A stretch of DNA of 63,804 nucleotides, counting the filler, from Bacteroidales bacterium (lineage in GTDB: Bacteria; Bacteroidota; Bacteroidia; Bacteroidales; CAIWKO01): assembly GCA_035389045.1 (NCBI GenBank). It is 4 parts of 4 records of this genome, joined end to end, with 100 filler letters (N's around TTAATTAATTAA, not from the genome) between each part and the next. Parts side by side here need not be neighbours in the genome. Positions count along the whole stretch, not along the records: positions 36,303 to 53,521 come from DAOORA010000081.1; 3 more parts are not named here. One strand, given 5' to 3'. Positions 18,067 through 53,621 of the stretch are shown in pieces. Within the stretch, counting starts at the first letter, position 1; every line of letters begins with the position of its first letter. The notes beneath the pieces were generated by a model. The model saw only the letters and a program-made list of their open reading frames with translations, was not told where the DNA came from and did not search any database. The translations under genes and the position numbers were made by a program.

Positions 18067-18166
18067 NNNNNNNNNNNNNNNNNNNNNNNNNNNNNNNNNN
18101 NNNNNNNNNNTTAATTAATTAANNNNNNNNNNNNNNNNNNNNNNNNNNNNNNNNNNNNNNNNNNNN
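18067..18166. other. Artificial contig linker
   Basis: N44-TTAATTAATTAA-N44, with stops in all six frames. Confidence 0.98.
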
Positions 18167-29448: not shown

Positions 29449-29575
29449 ATATTAAATAAAAGGCAAATTTACACAAAAAACTGATACCATATGCAAATCA
29501 TGAAGCCGGCAGTAATACGTAATTTTTGTGTTGCGGGTTTATGCCAGTCCGGGTGTGATGATATCGCAGACTCTT

Positions 29576-29736
29576 AGAAATTGTTTTGATTTTATCTTTT
29601 CATATCTTTATGCGTCTTTTTTGCCGCAACTTCGTTAGATTTTTCGACATAGGATAAACTATGTCTGCAAAATCTGCCTCGTTTCGCTAAAAAATCCATC
29701 ATAAATCTTATGTAACATAAAATCAAAACAGTTTCT
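29576..29736. mobile_element. MITE-like element with 19-bp terminal inverted repeats
   Basis: AGAAATTGTTTTGATTTTA and TAAAATCAAAACAGTTTCT (18/19 match). The first ~49 bp recur identically at 53472-53520. Confidence 0.8.
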
Positions 29737-30875
29737 TAATATTTTACAAACTTCATACTGAAGGTACCCCGGACACCTGCCACTCTGGTAAAATAGATAC
29801 CCGAAGGCAGTCCGGCCAAAGAAATCTGTTCACTATTACTATGGCAGACATTCCGGTTGTATAACATCTGCCCCTGCAAATCAAAAATCTGCACAGAAAT
29901 TATGGCATCCTGTGACAAAGAAAAATTTATTACATCGGAAACAGGATTGGGATAAACGAAAAAAGATGTGTGATACATCTCGCTTAACCCTGCGTAAGCC
30001 GGATTTTCGTGTTTGCAGAAAAACCTCCATATTTCGGTACAAGCGTTAAAATCATTGCATGACGCTCCAAAAGGAAGGTAAAAAGAAGATCCAGGCCAGG
30101 TATGTCCGCCCCCGATGATCTTAAAATGTTCCACACCGGCACTATTTATATTGGATGAATATATATAATGTATCGCAGTGACATTATCACCTGGATCAAT
30201 ATCCGGGACGCTATCGGTTAAACATGTGGCCTGACAACTGTCAATTTCTACCCATCTGTTCATCAGATCGGCAACAGAAACCATAGCGATGTTTCCATTA
30301 TATGCCACAATATTGTCAGAAGTGCCGTGTATATGCATTACAGGCCTAGCGCTCACGGGAAAACATGTGTTAAAATGATCGTTCATCATGGTGCCGCTCA
30401 CAGATGCCACGGCAGCAAATCTTGTGCTTGAACAGGCAAGAAGATAACACATGAACCCTCCGTTGGAATATCCGGTTGCATATATGCGTGACGGATCAAT
30501 CTTATAATGCGCTGCAAGCGTATCAATAAGTGCTTCAAGGAAAGAAACATCATCGGCCGGTGATGAAGAGAATCCGGTGTTCCACGACTGATAACCCGAT
30601 TCGGTGGCTCCGTCAGGCAGTACAATGAGAAAACCGGCCGTGTCGGCTATCGGCCTGAAATCAGCAACCTGGGCCTGAATATCGGCATTGACAAATAAGC
30701 CATGCAAATTAAAGACTACAGGAACCGGATGCAAACCGTCATATAGCTCAGGAACATAAATTTTATAAAAGCGTTCTATTCCTTCATGAACAAAAGATCC
30801 GGCTACCGTCGTTTGTGCCCGTAAATACTGTCCAAAAAACAAAAAAATGAAGATGAAGAAAAACTTTCTCATCAT
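29736..30875 (-). CDS. LpqC/PHB-depolymerase-like esterase with T9SS C-terminal sorting domain
   Basis: VFNLHG, GYSNGG nucleophile elbow, IHGTSD and GGGHTWPG; C-terminal YPNP..IFDLQG..LPSGIYF. Confidence 0.85.
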   Translation of the reverse strand: MMRKFFFIFIFLFFGQYLRAQTTVAGSFVHEGIERFYKIYVPELYDGLHPVPVVFNLHGLFVNADIQAQVADFRPIADTAGFLIVLPDGATESGYQSWNTGFSSSPADDVSFLEALIDTLAAHYKIDPSRIYATGYSNGGFMCYLLACSSTRFAAVASVSGTMMNDHFNTCFPVSARPVMHIHGTSDNIVAYNGNIAMVSVADLMNRWVEIDSCQATCLTDSVPDIDPGDNVTAIHYIYSSNINSAGVEHFKIIGGGHTWPGSSFYLPFGASCNDFNACTEIWRFFCKHENPAYAGLSEMYHTSFFVYPNPVSDVINFSLSQDAIISVQIFDLQGQMLYNRNVCHSNSEQISLAGLPSGIYFTRVAGVRGTFSMKFVKY

Positions 30876-36202: not shown

Positions 36203-36302
36203 NNNNNNNNNNNNNNNNNNNNNNNNNNNNNNNNNNNNNNNNNNNNTTAATTAATTAANNNNNNNNNNNNNNNNNNNNNNNNNNNNNNNNNNNNNNNNNN
36301 NN
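36203..36302. other. Artificial contig linker
   Basis: N-TTAATTAATTAA-N, 100 nt. Confidence 0.98.
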
Positions 36303-39395: not shown

Positions 39396-39472
39396 GGCTC
39401 CGTAGTTCAATTGGATAGAATAGCAGATTCCGGTTCTGTCGGTTGGGGGTTCGAGTCCCTCCGGAGTCACCA
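39396..39472 (+). tRNA. tRNA-Arg (anticodon CCG)
   Basis: Acceptor stem GGCTCCG/CGGAGTC, anticodon arm GCAGA-TTCCGGT-TCTGT, T-loop GTTCGAGT and encoded CCA. TATTTTTG promoter element at 39379-39386. Confidence 0.97.
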
Positions 39473-39482
39473 TCCAAAACAC

Positions 39483-39519
39483 AAATCCCTTGAAAGCTAA
39501 AAGTTTGCAAGGGATTTTT
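39483..39519 (+). terminator. Stem-loop with U-tract after the tRNA
   Basis: AAATCCCTTG...CAAGGGATTT followed by TTT. Confidence 0.65.
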
Positions 39520-39696
39520 TACATCAGGGGTAAAACATAGGTAAAAGATTTCCCCATAAATACAGATTATTTGAATTCCGGGAAATTATGATACCGACTA
39601 TTTGATTTTTATTATAACAAGTATCAGCCTATTCTGCTTGTCTATTTTTGTTGATATACTCAATCAGCCGGGTGAAGTACGATTCAAGGGATTCAT

Positions 39697-39798
39697 CCTC
39701 ATGTACGCTCAGAGTACACTGCGGTTTTCAGAAATTCGACTGCCTCGGACTTTTTTGTTTTTAGAGGCGCCCGATCCAGGTTATTAAAGATGCCCTTA
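39697..39798 (-). repeat. Partial inverted copy of the element at 48641-48818
   Basis: The reverse complement TAAGGGCATCT..GATCGGGCGCCTCTAAAA..GAGGCAGTCGAA.TTCTGAAAACCGCAGTGTACT matches 48642-48737. Confidence 0.85.
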
Positions 39799-39806
39799 TA
39801 TCATTA

Positions 39807-40445
39807 TTAAAAAAATTTATCATCCTGCCATTTTGCAGGGTTGTTTTTGATATATTCCGAAATACGTTGATACGATTGTTCATCGCGGATGATGTGGTCG
39901 TAATAATTAGGTTGAAAAAAATGGTTATGCCTGTTGTATTTGGGAATATTCAAATGGTTTGCATCAATATAATCGTCAATTTTGGAATTTACCGCCGATT
40001 TAAAACCCGCCAAAAACGATGATATGGATTTTGGCAAACGATAAAATGGGTGCAATGGTACAAATGGGTGCAATGGTAAATATGGCGGAAATTGTAGGGG
40101 CGCACGGCCGTGCGCCCCTACAATTTCCGCCCCAACGGTATCCGCCATTGTTTTATCGTTTTTGTCTATGACTACTATGGCGTGCAAATGATTGGGCATA
40201 ATTATATATTCGTCCAAAAATAATTCCTTGCGAATTTCAAATGATTTATGCCATTCGGCATCCACAATTTGACCAAATTTCGATAATTGCATACAGGCAT
40301 TGCAGGACGTATTAATAATTTTACCCAGATTACAAATCCTGTCTTGCGTTACCAGGGTAATATAATACATACCATCCGACGAATAATCCCAGCCCGGTTT
40401 ACGGTGTGATGTTCTGCGATATTTATTCTTAAATGTTTCGGGCAT
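39807..40445 (-). mobile_element. REP-associated tyrosine transposase (RAYT, HUH/Y1)
   Basis: R.PGWDYSSDGMYYITLVT, IMPNHLHAIV, FKSAV and FQPNYYDHIIRD..YI.NNP..W. Confidence 0.92.
40084..40131. repeat. 48-bp perfect palindrome (GTAG-type REP) within the RAYT coding sequence
   Basis: GGCGGAAATTGTAGGGGCGCACGG|CCGTGCGCCCCTACAATTTCCGCC. Confidence 0.92.
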
Positions 40446-40448
40446 TAT

Positions 40449-40541
40449 TTATTCATTTTCTGATTCCACTGTGCCGCGGAGTTTGTTGGCAGAATCCCAT
40501 AAGGTTTCTTCGATGCTTTTTTGTTTTATTTGTTTGGCCAT
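40449..40541 (-). pseudogene. hsdM: 30-aa N-terminal stub of a type I restriction-modification M subunit
   Basis: MAKQIKQKSIEETLWDSANKLRGTVESENE*, containing the LW..A..LRG motif of HsdM N-termini. TACATTTG promoter element at 40569-40562. Confidence 0.75.
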
Positions 40542-40685
40542 TATAAATTATTTACACATCACAAATGTATAAAATTAAGATTAATTCAATAAAAACAAAC
40601 CGAAATTTAATTTCATTTAGCTGTAATTTCTAATATCAAATAAATCGGCAGCAAAGTAATGTTTGCTGCCGAAAATTTGATAATT

Positions 40686-40865
40686 GAGCCCACTCCGAAA
40701 AGTATGATTTTTGAAAATCAGCATTGCCCCGGCCCAAAAGCCAGCCTGACTTGCCAGGCTGCGCCATGTAGTCAGGGCAGGGAGGCAGATTATCTGCGAC
40801 TTCCCTCTGGGATAAAAGGCAAAAAGTCGCAGGATAAGAAAAACGGGGCTTTTTGGAGTGGAATC
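40686..40865. mobile_element. MITE-like element with imperfect 17-bp terminal inverted repeats
   Basis: GAGCCCACTCCGAAAAG and CTTTTTGGAGTGGAATC; internal palindrome GCCTGACTTGCCAGGC. Confidence 0.65.
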
Positions 40866-40927
40866 GACCACTTAAAATGTCCATTACTCCAAAAAATCAA
40901 TTAAAAGCAGTTAATCAAACCGAATGA

Positions 40928-41947
40928 TCACTCCCCGCTAATAGTTTCTGAGGTAGTATTGCTTAAATGCTTCTGATAACCCTTACGGGCTTTTTCGGCG
41001 TTGTCGTTGGCATAACAATACCTGCAAAGATGCGGGCAGGTGTTATATTCGCCAATGTCTTTGCTCACTATGCAGCCGCAGTATTTGCGCTGACCTTTAT
41101 CTTTATTGTTTTTTTGTTTTACGATGCATGTTTCAGGATTCAATAAATCCGGAGCTATAATTTTTACATTCAGAAAATCCATCAACACCTTATCGGCATT
41201 GAACAAGCGAATGATCAGATCATCATCAATACATTTGTTATGAATGATGCCATACTGCTCTAACGGCAGTTTTTCAGCACAGGAGCCGATTTCAAAGTTC
41301 CAGCGCTTATTCAACTGCTGAAGGCCGGCTGCAAATTCATTCATGGCCTTTTCGTCAAACTCGAGGTAGCGGACAGCATGATGCTGAAGGTTGTGCTGTA
41401 CTTTTTTGTATGGGCCGATATCAGCAAAGCTGAACACCATTTTTGAGGTGTGATCCTTTAATTTGTCACCTGCGTTTTCGGCTTTCCGCAGCAATTCGTC
41501 AACACCCATCTTATCCGTGAGTATCAGCGGGTCGAAACGCCAGATGACTTTATCCCTGCCGGTTTTTTCCGAAAGTTCCATAAAAGTTTCAATTCTTGAA
41601 TCAAGCGGAGGAACATGCGGTTCAAGGTTCTCAGCATCATAATCATTCAGCGTGTACTGAAAATAGTAGTTCATCTTTCTTTCATCAAAAAAATCAAGAT
41701 GTTCTATCAGTGGCTTGGGATTTTTAGACCAGAAAACCATCAGGCGTGCCGAGGCTAATGACACATAACATACTTCACCATTAAAACGGTTTTTCCATTT
41801 CAGGTAACCCTGCTTAATCCGGTTGATGAGCCAGCCGGAATAAAAAGCCGGGATATCGGTGGCCCGGCTGGCCGAAATGATCACAGGCGCACGTGCCTTC
41901 ACGAAGGAGCCATCGGCAATTTTTAACTGTGTTTCCGGCCAGAACAT
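40928..41947 (-). CDS. DUF1848 family protein (C-terminal CxxxCxxC, radical-SAM-like)
   Basis: IISASRATDIPAFYSGWL, VFWSKNP, WRFDP and CGCIVSKDIGEYNTCPHLCRYCYAN. Confidence 0.88.
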   Translation of the reverse strand: MFWPETQLKIADGSFVKARAPVIISASRATDIPAFYSGWLINRIKQGYLKWKNRFNGEVCYVSLASARLMVFWSKNPKPLIEHLDFFDERKMNYYFQYTLNDYDAENLEPHVPPLDSRIETFMELSEKTGRDKVIWRFDPLILTDKMGVDELLRKAENAGDKLKDHTSKMVFSFADIGPYKKVQHNLQHHAVRYLEFDEKAMNEFAAGLQQLNKRWNFEIGSCAEKLPLEQYGIIHNKCIDDDLIIRLFNADKVLMDFLNVKIIAPDLLNPETCIVKQKNNKDKGQRKYCGCIVSKDIGEYNTCPHLCRYCYANDNAEKARKGYQKHLSNTTSETISGE

Positions 41948-42180
41948 ATTTGCAATTAGTTTATATCAATAACTCCCTGCATGGCAGTAATGCGTTGAAC
42001 AAAGGTAGCACCATTTTGCAGAAATTCATTTACAAAATCAGTTCTGACTCAATCACCAAAACTTTTTGAATGTCAAAGAAAAATATATTTTAGTGCCCAC
42101 TGGAACAAGGATATTTTATGTTTAATTTTGTCGGGTTAAAGACTTGTCAGTCAATATTAATTACACTTTTATCCGTTTTT

Positions 42181-42576
42181 ATGAAGAACATCCTGATTTT
42201 TGCCCTGGTTGCGCTTATATCTGCCGGGCTTTTTATCTCATGTGAAAAGAAAACAATCGACAGGGGCTCTTACAACCAGCCCTTTAATCCCTACCACACG
42301 GATTCGGTCCGGTTCAGCGCCGACATCATCCCCATTTTTACGGCAAGCTGCCTGAGCTGCCATGCCCAGGGGTTTTCCAATCCCATTCTGGATGCCGGCG
42401 TCGCCTACACCAACCTGACAGCAACTCCCGGACAGTATATCAATCTGGCTGACCCTCCTTCCAGTGTCCTCTATACCACCATCGTTTCCACACAGAGTGT
42501 TCACGGCAGCGGCCCCTATACTGTCGAAGGAGCAAAAATACTGACCTGGATACAGCAGGGAGCAAAAAATAATTAA
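42181..42576 (+). CDS. Monoheme c-type cytochrome lipoprotein
   Basis: Lipoprotein signal ending LFISC, FSADIIPIF...CLSCH and C-terminal ILTWIQQGAKNN. TAATTTTG at 42123-42130 supports a start at 42181. Confidence 0.85.
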   Translation: MKNILIFALVALISAGLFISCEKKTIDRGSYNQPFNPYHTDSVRFSADIIPIFTASCLSCHAQGFSNPILDAGVAYTNLTATPGQYINLADPPSSVLYTTIVSTQSVHGSGPYTVEGAKILTWIQQGAKNN

Positions 42577-42598
42577 CAAATCAAAAACACATTTTCAG

Positions 42599-43597
42599 AT
42601 GAGACAAAAATATACATACCTGCTTATTGTATTCCTAATGGTTTTTACTCTACTCTCCCCCGACACCTTATTCCCGCAAGATAACGACAGTACTGCTGCA
42701 TATCCGACAGAGCAGGTTGACACGCTTGCTTTTCAGATAGCCCAGGGCAAAAAACCCGTGCAGGATGCCTGGACAGGCGCTACCCTGGTGGATATGCCGA
42801 CGGCCTATATCCCATCAAAAGGGAGTTTAGAGTTTCATATCCAGCATCGGTTTTCCAATCTTGACAACGGTATTCATGATCTTTTCGGACTTTATGGCGC
42901 TTCCAATATAAGACTTGCGATGACCTACTCCATACTGGACAGGCTGCTGGTGGGTTTTGGCACCGAAAAAGACCATAAATACCAGGAACTTTTTGTCAAA
43001 GCCAACCTGCTCGAACAGACACGTAACGGTAAGATGCCCCTGTCGCTTACTTTATACGGGAACACCAGCCTGGCTGCCCGGGGTAAAAACTACTGGGGCC
43101 AGGGATACAAATTCATCGACAAACTGTCGTACCACGGGCAACTGATCGTTTCACGGAAATTCCATGACATGTTTTCGTTGGAAGCCGGCATAAGTTACAG
43201 CCACTTCAACAAAACAGAGAGTGTTCAGGTGTCCGATACCATCATCAATCAGGCCGACACAGCCAACTCTGTAATACATTCATCTTACACCGGAATTACA
43301 CAAAACGATATCCTCGGGGTGTCTGCAGGAGCACGTATCCGGTTTTACCGCAACATGTCGGTGATTCTTGAATACGATCAGGGATTTTTCCTGAAGAAAG
43401 CTTCGGGACAACAACTGAAACCCAAGCCCAACCTGGCGCTCTGTTACGAAATAGGCACTTCCACCCATGTGTTCCAGGTCTTTGCCTCCTCTTACCGAGC
43501 ACTCAATCCTCAACATAACTTTGCTTATAACCAGTTCGACTTCACCAAACTCAAAGGACTGATGATCGGCTTCAACATCATTGTACGACTGAATTAA
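42599..43597 (+). CDS. DUF5777-like outer-membrane beta-barrel protein
   Basis: Signal peptide; LEFHIQHRF, LFGLYGASNIRL, QLIVSRKF, EIGTSTHVFQVF and terminal IGFNIIVRL strand. Confidence 0.75.
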   Translation: MRQKYTYLLIVFLMVFTLLSPDTLFPQDNDSTAAYPTEQVDTLAFQIAQGKKPVQDAWTGATLVDMPTAYIPSKGSLEFHIQHRFSNLDNGIHDLFGLYGASNIRLAMTYSILDRLLVGFGTEKDHKYQELFVKANLLEQTRNGKMPLSLTLYGNTSLAARGKNYWGQGYKFIDKLSYHGQLIVSRKFHDMFSLEAGISYSHFNKTESVQVSDTIINQADTANSVIHSSYTGITQNDILGVSAGARIRFYRNMSVILEYDQGFFLKKASGQQLKPKPNLALCYEIGTSTHVFQVFASSYRALNPQHNFAYNQFDFTKLKGLMIGFNIIVRLN

Positions 43598-43607
43598 ACA
43601 AAAACCT

Positions 43608-44636
43608 GTGGAGGAAAAGGAAAAAAAACACCTGATACGCAATGTCGGAGCGATAGCCCTGATGATCGGGCTTACCCTGATGATCGTTTTCTGTTTCCGG
43701 TACTATAATACTTCAATAAATATAACAGCAGCTGATATCAGGGAATTTACGTCTAAAAAAGATAATGCACAGTGCCTGAAATGTCATTCCCGCAGCAGTT
43801 GTGAAATTCCCGGTTCTAAAAATATATCAAAAAACAAAATATATTCCATCCGGCCACAGAACAGGATCGACACGGTGAGATATTACAACTCAAACCATTG
43901 GGACTTTAAATGCACCGACTGCCATTCAGATGAATATCTGAACGTACCCCATGATTCATCGCTGAAAGAAAATGCTATGATCACCTGCCTCGACTGCCAC
44001 GGCGGAGATGAAACCTTTGCACATTTTCATTTTGAAGACATAGATACGGCCTGTATGCACAGTGTTCATTATATGACAGACAGCATCAACTTTTCCTGCT
44101 GGAACTGCCATATTGCCCATTATGACAAGCTGCACAGCAGGGATACCATACAACCTCTGCGAAGGGTTATCAGCTACGATAACATGATGTGCCTCACTTG
44201 CCACAGCAAGGAACCCTCATACCGGGGAACATTCCGTACCGGCAACATCAAAACTGATATGGCTACAATACATGCCTGGTTGCCCGAAACGGAACTACAC
44301 ATGAATAATGTACGTTGCATTGACTGTCATGCCGCTTCAAATGACAACATGATGGTATCTCATCGTATTGAACCCAAAACTCTCGCCTTAAAAGATTGTA
44401 AGGCTTGCCACTCCGAAAACTCCGTGCTGCTCAATACCCTTTACAAAAACAGAAAACAAGCCGGATTAAAAAAGATCAGCATTCTGAAAGACTTATCTTT
44501 AGACGGCAAGCCTGTATCCAAAAAAATGGATGATCCCGTCCTGAATACTGTCCTGATCGCACTGACCGCGATAATTCTTTTCATAATTCTTTTTTATGTT
44601 ATTCGTCATATGATAACTATTGTTGAAAAAAAATAA
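43608..44636 (+). CDS. Membrane-anchored multiheme c-type cytochrome (7 CxxCH)
   Basis: CLKCH, CTDCH, CLDCH, CWNCH, CLTCH, CIDCH and CKACH; hydrophobic helices at both termini. Confidence 0.9.
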   Translation: MEEKEKKHLIRNVGAIALMIGLTLMIVFCFRYYNTSINITAADIREFTSKKDNAQCLKCHSRSSCEIPGSKNISKNKIYSIRPQNRIDTVRYYNSNHWDFKCTDCHSDEYLNVPHDSSLKENAMITCLDCHGGDETFAHFHFEDIDTACMHSVHYMTDSINFSCWNCHIAHYDKLHSRDTIQPLRRVISYDNMMCLTCHSKEPSYRGTFRTGNIKTDMATIHAWLPETELHMNNVRCIDCHAASNDNMMVSHRIEPKTLALKDCKACHSENSVLLNTLYKNRKQAGLKKISILKDLSLDGKPVSKKMDDPVLNTVLIALTAIILFIILFYVIRHMITIVEKK

Positions 44637-44723
44637 TAAAAAACTTAAGAATTGTGTAGTTTTTGTAAATTTGTCTTTATTAATTCTGATAATCAGGTAT
44701 GAAATTATTTAATTAAAAATATT

Positions 44724-45128
44724 ATGAAACTGAAAATAATAATTTTGAACATCACAGCCATCTGTCTGGCCGTGTTAATCATGTCGGCCAATCTGCAGCA
44801 TAAACCCTGGGTGATCCCTGCCAAGTATAAAACGCTGAAAAACCCCGTAAAAATGAGTTCGGCGAGCACTTCAGCAGGTAAGCTTACGTATGACAAACAC
44901 TGTAAATCGTGCCACGGCAGCACCGGCAAAGGCGATGGTGTAAAAGCCAAAACCCTGAAAACTCACATCAGCGATCTCGGCACAACAAGTGTACAGACCG
45001 CGTCAGACGGAGAAATTTATTATAAAGCTTTTATCGGCAGAGATGAAGCTCCCAACCTGGAAAAAAAGATTCCCGACGAAACCGATCGCTGGAATATTGT
45101 AAATTTTGTCCGTTCCTTAAAGAAATAA
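44724..45128 (+). CDS. Periplasmic monoheme class I cytochrome c
   Basis: Signal peptide, LKNPV, CKSCHG..GKGDG, SDGEIYYK and RWNIVNFVRSL. TAAATTTG at 44666-44673. Confidence 0.9.
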   Translation: MKLKIIILNITAICLAVLIMSANLQHKPWVIPAKYKTLKNPVKMSSASTSAGKLTYDKHCKSCHGSTGKGDGVKAKTLKTHISDLGTTSVQTASDGEIYYKAFIGRDEAPNLEKKIPDETDRWNIVNFVRSLKK

Positions 45129-45147
45129 AACATAAAAAGCTATAACT

Positions 45148-45948
45148 ATGAAATCAAAACGACTAGCACTTTTACTTGTTTGTATTATGGCGATATACGC
45201 CACCGGTTTTGCGCAGACAGCCGGTACCCTTACCTTTACAGTAAAAACAACTGCCCCCTCCGGACAGTATAATCCGCGCCATCTTGTTGCAATATGGATA
45301 CAAAACAGCAGCACATCGGGCTCTTCAGCATCATTTATTAAAACCAAGATAAAATACGGTTATAGTTACCTGCAGTTTCTTAATGCCTGGGTTTCTGCCT
45401 CCGGGCAGAATACCACCGATGCCGTTACCGGAGCTACAAGGACTAATTCCCCCGAAACCCTGAGTTTTTCATGGAATGGCACCAACGCCAGCGGCGTCCT
45501 GGTTCCTGACGGCACCTATTATATCTGGATGCAGATGACGGCACAGAATATGAATGGTGCAACAGCTTATATTTCTTTCACCAAAGGACCTTCGGAAGTT
45601 ACGCTCACCCCTGCCAACACCGGTAATTACAGCGATATGAGCCTGACCTGGACTCCATCGACCTTTGGATCGGAAGAAAACAACCCTGAAAAACCGCTTA
45701 TGACCATTACTTCCAACCCGGTTTCCGGCTCAAGTATGATCCTCTATACCCTTGACGAACCGTCGGATGTTACCCTTACCCTGCATGATGTGACGGGAAA
45801 ACTGGTGAACGTAATTCTTGATGGCAACCAAAATGCCGGTGCGCATACCCTTCCGCTTACCGGAACTTCCGGTTTGAAATCAGGTATATATTTCGTTAAG
45901 ATATACACTGGTAAAGTTCAGCATACCGTGAGGATTTTTGTTCCCTGA
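45148..45948 (+). CDS. DUF2271-like protein with flavinylation motif and T9SS C-terminal sorting domain
   Basis: VAIWIQ..FIKT, DAVTGAT and WNGTN..G.LVPDGTY; C-terminal SNPV..LHDVTGKLV..LKSGIYFVKI..TVRIFV. Confidence 0.8.
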   Translation: MKSKRLALLLVCIMAIYATGFAQTAGTLTFTVKTTAPSGQYNPRHLVAIWIQNSSTSGSSASFIKTKIKYGYSYLQFLNAWVSASGQNTTDAVTGATRTNSPETLSFSWNGTNASGVLVPDGTYYIWMQMTAQNMNGATAYISFTKGPSEVTLTPANTGNYSDMSLTWTPSTFGSEENNPEKPLMTITSNPVSGSSMILYTLDEPSDVTLTLHDVTGKLVNVILDGNQNAGAHTLPLTGTSGLKSGIYFVKIYTGKVQHTVRIFVP

Positions 45949-53521: not shown

Positions 53522-53621
53522 NNNNNNNNNNNNNNNNNNNNNNNNNNNNNNNNNNNNNNNNNNNNTTAATTAATTAANNNNNNNNNNNNNNNNNNNNNNN
53601 NNNNNNNNNNNNNNNNNNNNN
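53522..53621. other. Artificial contig linker
   Basis: N-TTAATTAATTAA-N, 100 nt. Confidence 0.98.

Follow-up and report, generated by a model that had tools for sequence, protein, structure and literature searches.

Do five adjacent genes of a Bacteroidales bacterium carry electrons across the cell envelope? The question arose from a 63,804-nucleotide stretch of DNA (hereafter, the window) from genome assembly GCA_035389045.1 (G000; completeness 96.3%), in which contig C81 carries five co-oriented genes at positions 42181-45948: A (lipoprotein), B (DUF5777 barrel), C (heptahaem cytochrome), D (cytochrome c), and E (DUF2271 with a type IX secretion system (T9SS) tail). An earlier, sequence-only reading took these genes for a trans-envelope electron conduit. 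Comparison with relatives leads us, tentatively, to favour a modified answer: the locus is quite possibly a version of a widespread envelope redox cassette of Bacteroidales that has diverged yet still functions. The grounds include a cytochrome b gene that nearly all relatives encode with C, the failure to find this gene in a single clade, and the selection acting on the five genes that remain.

Open reading frame (ORF) calls on the window confirmed the five co-oriented genes on the + strand, and the motif count agreed with the nine CxxCH motifs originally reported (1+0+7+1+0 for A to E). The features of the locus are:

42123..42130, + strand: TAnnTTTG, a possible promoter element for A-B-C (motif search; weak)
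42181..42576, + strand: A, monohaem lipoprotein, PSCyt1/PccH/FoxE-like (lipobox Cys21, CxxCH at 57, probable distal His115)
42599..43597, + strand: B, DUF5777 outer-membrane beta-barrel with 12 predicted strands (Pfam, model); an N-terminal segment precedes the first strand
43608..44636, + strand: C, heptahaem cytochrome c, the multihaem half of a split CbcL-like module (7 CxxCH)
44637..44723, + strand: C-D gap of 87 bp, where relatives hold a gene for a cytochrome b of ~205 aa; TAnnTTTG at 44666
44724..45128, + strand: D, periplasmic class I cytochrome c (c552-like) with Ala109 at the axial Met site (Pfam, alignment)
45148..45948, + strand: E, DUF2271 with a TGAT flavinylation motif (residues 94-97) and a T9SS type A sorting domain

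The locus within a larger cassette

Genes of the C family are present in 90 of the 401 genomes of the order. We assembled 94 C loci (80 regions from the order-wide C search, 12 from a separate search, and 2 metagenome contigs) and counted the neighbouring genes on all six frames. Where 2.5 kb or more of upstream flank is available (86 loci), A and B precede C in 80 loci, so the co-occurrence that the sequence-only reading had proposed as a check holds in many Bacteroidales. A cytochrome b gene (PF01292) was located within 3.5 kb of C in 82 of the 89 loci whose sequence continues for 1 kb or more past C. The seven misses comprise two fusions of C with cytochrome b, one locus with the gene farther along the operon, and four loci from the clade of the window (one of them redundant); in total, cytochrome b is beside C, fused to it, or farther off in the operon in 85/89 loci. 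The fusions (L141 9107-10729, 540 aa; L142 9112-10767, 551 aa) are full CbcL-like proteins.

Where the flanks reach 4 kb or more on each side of C (70 loci), common members are a Crp/Fnr regulator (57 loci), a 5/6-haem lipoprotein carrying an MtrC-like domain (51; a separate tally gives 52 of 71 C loci), D (51), and ccsA (22). Many cassettes add an NrfC/NrfD module, a 6-haem protein matching NapC/NirT, or a 19-haem cytochrome b fusion. Cytochromes with 19, 23, and 20 haems occur in or near the cassettes of L105 (10673-13468), L106, and L249, the 19-haem one containing a cytochrome b domain. The cytochrome b partner of L130 (10281-11690; 469 aa) includes a fused domain resembling the glycine-cleavage H-protein. 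The source databases assign close homologues to Bacteroidales or Bacteroidota. A C-only scan of genome contigs produced 2 loci, and a D scan of metagenomes produced 34, with C present only in L049 and L073; L049 repeats the layout of L020 and does not count as an independent locus.

The locus lacks two usual members of this larger cassette, cytochrome b and the 5/6-haem lipoprotein. The complete five-gene unit, as initially described, was encountered in a single clade of one genus (among C loci, E directly follows D in genus g1 only) and is a reduced derivative of the cassette. We consider it unlikely that the five genes alone make up a full quinol-to-surface respiratory conduit ending in a flavoprotein. 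That proposal accounts for predicted locations that span the envelope, for the maturation, ApbE, and T9SS genes of the genome, and for the recurrent linkage of E to A-B. It is at odds with the lack of a quinol-oxidizing subunit at the locus and of a detectable cytochrome b of the usual kind in G000, with a D devoid of its axial Met, with a predicted barrel of only 12 strands, and with the failure to find an orthologue of the surface multihaem protein in G000.

Loss of cytochrome b

Along with its seven CxxCH motifs, C contains seven further His residues, each conserved in 94 or 95 of 95 aligned rows (the His of the first CxxCH in 90/95), which fits seven bis-His haems. Hydrophobic helices at residues 12-30 and 314-332, near both ends, agree with the membrane-anchored heptahaem protein of the sequence-only reading. 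The AlphaFold model of C is of low confidence (pLDDT, the predicted local distance difference test score, 55.7; 12 sequences) and was excluded from the fold search; profile comparison with solved structures gave weak multihaem matches (best E 4.5e-7). A His in the C-terminal, transmembrane helix is kept in 89 of the 95 rows, and the six misses are five rows from the clade of the window and one truncated row from the same clade. The NRN-type motif ahead of this His is lost in the clade as well.

Five genomes form this clade (G000, G007, G002, G016, and G013, with the G013 cassette divided between two contigs), and all run straight from C to D. Cytochrome b was not found genome-wide in G000, nor in the other four genomes (77-89% complete), with a positive control in G006. 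In trees built from a subset of loci and rooted at the midpoint, the clade rows group at 100/99, nested among cytochrome b bearers, for both B (five clade rows; 41 rows in all) and C (four clade rows; 22 in all). Thus, the cytochrome b gene was probably deleted once, in the five-species clade. Loss of cytochrome b, loss of the transmembrane His of C, and replacement of the axial Met of D by Ala constitute a concerted change.

All haem ligands of C are intact across the clade at 44-54% identity, and dN/dS is 0.05-0.29 for all five genes (clade pairs with estimable dS). The five genes are under purifying selection, and with such values across all of them the cassette is not decaying. That the locus is a decaying relic of the cytochrome b loss is hardly tenable, and already largely refuted: the displacement of the upstream Crp/Fnr gene by a transposase-like gene and a DUF1848 gene, and the faster evolution of C in the clade, would suit decay, but the frames are open in five species, C has kept every haem ligand, and dN/dS is far below 1 for the five genes.

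Genomic background

The sequence-only reading had suggested checking the genome for apbE and ccsA/ccm, and outside the window G000 indeed encodes ApbE (contig C4; E 2.8e-81) and CcsA, the latter with a ResB-like neighbour, in addition to SprA, cytochrome bd, and an NrfH/NrfA-like pair recognized by sequence and haem count. ApbE is present in three of the four other clade genomes. Searches of G000 found neither a haem-copper oxidase nor NrfD, and NrfD was not found in four clade genomes. A profile search of G000 for an orthologue of the 5/6-haem lipoprotein gave only weak matches, the best (E 1.2e-7) to NrfA. Other multihaem proteins of G000, besides NrfHA, are a five-CxxCH protein of 487 aa (C14:519-1982) and a peroxidase-like dihaem lipoprotein (C10:42907-44094).

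The barrel and the lipoprotein

B matches DUF5777 with an E value of 2.5e-59 (Pfam), in agreement with the barrel initially reported. This family is present in 86 of 201 genomes of the phylum, with one copy in G000. The predicted model of B (14 long strands, pLDDT 94, alignment of 113 sequences) is interpreted here as a barrel of 12 strands with an additional extended hairpin. The top structural matches (Z 16.8-18.2) are KdgM (Z 18.2; root-mean-square deviation 1.9, 167 aligned), FapF (Z 18.0), COG4313 (Z 17.2), and NanC, the first three being effectively tied. B shares the fold of these 12-strand channels at 7-9% identity; a common fold is no evidence of function, and no channel of these types is known to pair with a haem lipoprotein. 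MtrB, by comparison, has ~26 strands, and with a predicted 12-strand barrel a wire in the MtrAB style is unlikely. The likeness to porin-cytochrome conduits drawn in the sequence-only reading is not supported as stated: the predicted barrel resembles the KdgM/FapF/COG4313 channels and no cytochrome-housing porin. A feature search of the Atlas with B returned unnamed clusters and one lead of the COG4313 type. Three His residues of B are conserved in 29 distant DUF5777 proteins (His83 in 29/29, His202 in 27/29, and His290 in 29/29).

B also contains the sequence DAWTGAT, which we rejected as a flavinylation motif and attribute to chance because, among 120 barrel homologues, the motif occurs in one, that of the window itself. 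In G019 (69% complete), the barrel gene is split in two (L024 2153-3091), through either a frameshift or an assembly error.

Profile comparison of A with FoxE, PccH, and the hydrazine synthase alpha subunit gave weak matches (E 2e-4 to 2e-3). Residues +2 to +8 after the lipidated Cys have a net charge of +1, with no lipoprotein export signal (LES). Under the rule for surface export described in part of PMC5080379, namely, K-(D/E)2 or an acidic patch after the lipidated Cys, as defined in other genera, A with this charge should face the periplasm. A surface location for A is therefore not supported. Among 89 A homologues, 69 have a net negative N-terminus, similar to export signals.

These properties of A and B bear on a second explanation, which we regard as doubtful: B may be a channel for hydrophobic or redox-active molecules, such as quinones or humic fragments, that A redox-processes at the periplasmic exit, with no outward flow of electrons. 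The best structural matches of B being 12-strand channels, and the charge and missing LES of A, would suit such a role. So would the company that the barrel keeps elsewhere in Bacteroidota, where an A-like gene lies within 1.5 kb in 21 of the 30 top loci and YceI accounts for 4/4 of the neighbours scanned. Outward transfer is better suited by the net negative N-terminus of most A homologues and by the recurrence of candidate surface partners, with the 5/6-haem lipoprotein in 52/71 loci and E or a haem-Reeler protein in 7/19 of the rest.

A cytochrome c without the axial methionine

D matches Cytochrom_C (Pfam; E 6.6e-9), and its closest solved homologue is CytC552 of Thioalkalivibrio paradoxus (PDB 7o9u; E 2.5e-14), in which the haem is solvent-exposed and the axial ligand is Met103, according to the relevant part of PMC9456337. 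The residue of D aligned with Met103 is Ala109. Across 75 D rows, the axial site is Met in 67, Ala in 7 (all from the clade of the window, 2 of them redundant), and a gap in 1 (a truncated row); among the best 120 database homologues, it is Met in 116 and Ala in 4, and these four are the closest to the query, query included. The clade Ala is written with three different codons in five species. D therefore fits the soluble monohaem cytochrome of the sequence-only reading as far as the family is concerned, but without the axial Met it is no ordinary His/Met shuttle of class I, and its sixth haem site is predicted to be open.

TAnnTTTG, the consensus of the Bacteroidota -7 promoter element, is found before A (42123) and before D (44666), as noted earlier, and within genes at 43516 and 44740. 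Promoters at 42123 and 44666, the latter possibly internal and serving D-E, are plausible, but the calls are weak because the motif is common in the window (35 + strand sites, 0.55 per kb). No TAnnTTTG was seen in the C-D gap of G007. Contigs from three RNA runs labelled activated sludge include pieces identical to D (3/3 runs), E (2/3), and part of B (1/3), with A and C uncovered and the flanking genes covered. The gaps in coverage of A, B, and C say nothing on expression; as the contigs may be of DNA origin and give no expression ranking, they are a weak sign of expression.

Cytochromes c with Met replaced by Ala can bind external ligands, which brings up handling of gases or oxidants. D-E would then be a separate unit in which the open-site haem binds NO (nitric oxide), O2, or peroxide and C donates the electrons. 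This is quite unlikely in our assessment. The axial Ala has been retained over a saturated synonymous distance, an internal promoter at 44666 is possible, the RNA-library contigs cover D and E, and G000 has cytochrome bd and NrfHA, with no haem-copper oxidase found, all of which would be compatible with that role; yet no clade-specific conserved distal catalytic residue was seen in the D alignment, the contigs cover neighbours too and do not rank expression, and no counterpart of the motif at 44666 was seen in the G007 gap.

The flavoprotein and its neighbourhoods

E scores 29.1 bits against DUF2271 (cut-off 27.3) and carries Por_Secre_tail (Pfam); it scores 39.1 against TIGR04183 (cut-off 23), and its predicted structure matches DUF2271 (TM 0.89). 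The motif DAVTGAT starts at residue 91 and, with the DUF2271 and TIGR04183 matches, substantiates the earlier identification of a T9SS-tagged protein with a flavinylation motif. With its hydrophobic N-terminus, the TIGR04183 domain, and SprA encoded in the genome, E has the attributes of a T9SS type A cargo. The motif [S/T]GA[S/T] is a demonstrated target of ApbE (PMC8238504, in the part consulted).

E-type genes occur in 67 of the 401 genomes of the order. Among the 28 top-ranked E loci, a set that leaves out G000 and G017, 11 have a redox neighbour within 1.5 kb (DUF5777 in 6, a six-haem cytochrome in 3, and ApbE in 2), and 5 of 20 further loci have such a neighbour within 6 kb, compared with 1.3% at random positions in G000. 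Pooling gives 15/40, from 40 of the remaining 66 E-bearing genomes, but this value is inflated, since the neighbours of 10 of the loci were already known when these were chosen; 11/28 and 5/20 are less biased. The expectation that DUF2271-T9SS genes recur next to the barrel, multihaem cytochromes, and ApbE is thus borne out in other families, and the notion that E is an unrelated neighbour was dropped in view of these recurrent redox settings.

E lies within 12 kb of C in five genomes outside the genus, and the order A-B-Reeler-type protein-E is found in four loci, with a CxxCH in the Reeler protein in three of these. In the set of 71 C loci, E is within 2.5 kb of C in 4 of the 19 loci that lack the 5/6-haem lipoprotein (the four being related) versus 1 of the 52 that have it, and 7 of the 19 have either E or a haem-Reeler T9SS protein. 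This pattern fits interchangeable surface terminals, which is how we would interpret it. Modularity of cytochromes and flavins is argued in a section of PMC8238504. ApbE is encoded near the cassette in G017 and G179, and in G006 on the same contig, ~8.5 kb from E. The idea that an intact TGAT tracks the loss of cytochrome b was rejected, as G179 has both TGAT and cytochrome b.

Reeler-type domains with CxxCH were noted in L024 (3681-4478), L112, L116, L123, and L223-L226; these either lie upstream of the cassette and bear a T9SS tail themselves or lack a tail and immediately precede the DUF2271-T9SS gene. Directly 5' of apbE near two cassettes is a dihaem lipoprotein-like gene encoding 152-154 aa (L023 1553-2017; L119 13616-14074). 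G093, G217, G115, and G321 contain 3-7 DUF2271-like domains, several of them within open frames of 1,200-4,400 aa, which are candidates for multi-flavinylated surface proteins.

Assimilatory reduction of iron, as proposed for clusters of PepSY and DUF2271, is a very improbable role for the locus. DUF2271 is mostly found in PepSY-like clusters tied to iron uptake, in the clusters described in part of PMC8238504, but a Pfam scan of 14 ORFs at the locus and on its flanks detected neither PepSY nor a TonB receptor nor an iron transporter, and the cassette is costly in haem and usually adjoins a Crp/Fnr regulator.

Comparison with known systems

The CbcL/MtrH/MtoC family combines an N-terminal multihaem region with a cytochrome b of the HydC/FdnI type, and a table in the part of PMC6295460 consulted includes 5 Bacteroidetes homologues. 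Relatives of the locus match this architecture, as two adjacent genes or as the 540-551 aa fusions, but differ in being nearly all split and having 7 haems. The locus itself retains the multihaem c domain and has lost the attached cytochrome b with its membrane His; because that half and the transmembrane His are gone, C alone is no CbcL.

Like MtrCAB and OmaB-OmbB-OmcB, as described in passages of PMC6344600, the locus encodes a barrel and c-type cytochromes in one operon, and in the full Bacteroidales cassette these are often joined by a lipoprotein that has an MtrC-like domain. It differs from the Mtr conduits in the predicted 12-strand barrel, the monohaem lipoprotein partner, the membrane-anchored multihaem protein, and the lack of a surface multihaem protein; neither the housed soluble multihaem cytochrome nor the surface one of Mtr/Pcc systems is encoded. 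Nor is the locus a fused cytochrome-porin of the Cyc2 type, A and B being separate ORFs and B having no CxxCH. The system would work like a quinol-linked porin-cytochrome system, yet belongs to none of Mtr/Pcc, CbcL, and Cyc2.

E shares with ApbE-flavinylated DUF2271 proteins the fold, the [S/T]GA[S/T] motif, and the presence of ApbE in the genome and near the cassettes of relatives. It differs from those covered in the consulted part of PMC8238504 in its T9SS tail, its linkage to cytochromes c and a barrel, and the absence of PepSY/DUF4198. The passages of that paper that were searched make no mention of Bacteroidetes, type IX, or porin, although its gene-cluster table may list such clusters.

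A barrel with cytochromes has been proposed to mediate extracellular electron transfer (EET) in an anode-enriched Bacteroidota metagenome-assembled genome (MAG) of class UBA10030 with six multihaem genes (PMC8258643) and in Bacteroidota MAGs from humic lakes (PMC6344600); the passages of these papers that were searched do not name DUF5777, and the likeness to our cassette is by description only. DUF5777 had no mention in the literature searched, which left most subscription literature outside its scope, and the combination of Bacteroidota multihaem cytochromes, type IX secretion, and EET returned nothing there.

Surrounding sequence

The window joins contigs C78, C79, C81, and C100, separated by spacers of N at 18067-18166, 36203-36302, and 53522-53621; because these are separate contigs, genes on either side of a spacer are no true neighbours. 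Upstream of the locus, 39396-41947 contains tRNA-Arg(CCG), an IS200-like Y1 transposase, and DUF1848 where G017 has a divergent Crp/Fnr regulator (L023 10627-11364), and the ferredoxin and CoA-binding genes flanking this region are syntenic with G017. In G000 the best homologue of this regulator (C10:29381-30097) is separated from the ccs genes by ~11.5 kb. Elsewhere in the window, at 29566-29750, lies an element of ~165 bp with dozens of genome-wide copies that are 94-99% identical and often at contig ends, possibly a miniature inverted-repeat transposable element (MITE) or similar to repetitive extragenic palindromic (REP) sequences.

Discussion

The locus is real and absent from the literature searched, and its gene content was read directly from the genomes; the electron flow and localisation across the cassette we infer as follows. 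By what is known of these families, electrons are exchanged between quinol and CbcL-type modules, DUF2271 receives its flavin from ApbE, and T9SS tails direct export. In the common form of the cassette, cytochrome b would oxidize quinol and reduce heptahaem C, from which electrons would pass to D, a soluble His/Met cytochrome c, and on to the haem lipoprotein A at the small barrel B. The candidate surface carriers are the 5/6-haem lipoprotein, a haem-Reeler T9SS protein, or the flavinylated DUF2271-T9SS protein E. In the clade of the window, C, with its docking His lost and seven haems kept, would probably serve as a haem wire tethered to the membrane and receive electrons from a different quinol dehydrogenase, for which NrfH is the sole candidate found in G000. 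D, having lost the axial Met, would probably bind an external ligand or a residue of a partner, and the most likely role of A, B, and E would be electron exchange, at the outer membrane, with redox-active molecules outside the cell. Since a barrel of 12 strands probably cannot accommodate a cytochrome as MtrB does, transfer along this route, through a narrow barrel with no threaded cytochrome, would call for a cofactor inside the barrel or a shuttle that diffuses.

The idea of an electron conduit thus persists in altered form: co-occurrence of the genes, cytochrome maturation, ApbE, T9SS, and the linkage of E speak for it, whereas the completeness of the five genes, the nature of D, the barrel, and the export of A do not.

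Several observations weigh against our reading of the locus as a derived, functional variant. The loss of cytochrome b and the two substitutions are one evolutionary event and so a single observation, from which no statistical correlation can be drawn. C evolves faster in the clade (dN/dS 0.13-0.22 vs 0.06), which fits partial relaxation too. The input of electrons after the loss of cytochrome b is a difficulty, NrfH being present in only 3/5 clade genomes (G000, G016, and G013) and not found in G007 and G002 (79% and 89% complete). His83, His202, and His290 of B sit on different strands, and their orientation to the lumen cannot be read from the model. With regard to E, most E-type genes (25/40) have no redox neighbour within 6 kb, the 1.3% background comes from one cytochrome-poor genome, G000, and the motif is non-canonical in G006 (TGST) and G017 (TSST).

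In a bolder version, possible but on the doubtful side, Bacteroidales would have a trans-envelope system of their own, leading from a split CbcL-type quinol oxidase through a 12-strand barrel with a haem lipoprotein to interchangeable surface terminals, one of them flavinylated and exported by T9SS. The locus would then be a natural experiment in which the oxidase was lost, the haem of D opened, and a flavin terminal replaced the surface multihaem protein.

Apparently new, as far as the searches went, are the split-CbcL context, the DUF2271-T9SS link, and a clade in which cytochrome b was not found. This clade supplies a natural cytochrome c without its axial Met, and its natural deletion points to where the heptahaem protein and cytochrome b touch. 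Homologues from Lentimicrobium and Ancylomarina suggest cultured hosts. Bacteroidales are usually seen as fermenters, yet about one fifth of the sampled genomes (90/401) carry the C family, mostly within the barrel cassette. If outward transfer is true, the cassette would put names to genes through which electroactivity claimed for Bacteroidota can be tested, and would join T9SS export to protein flavinylation.

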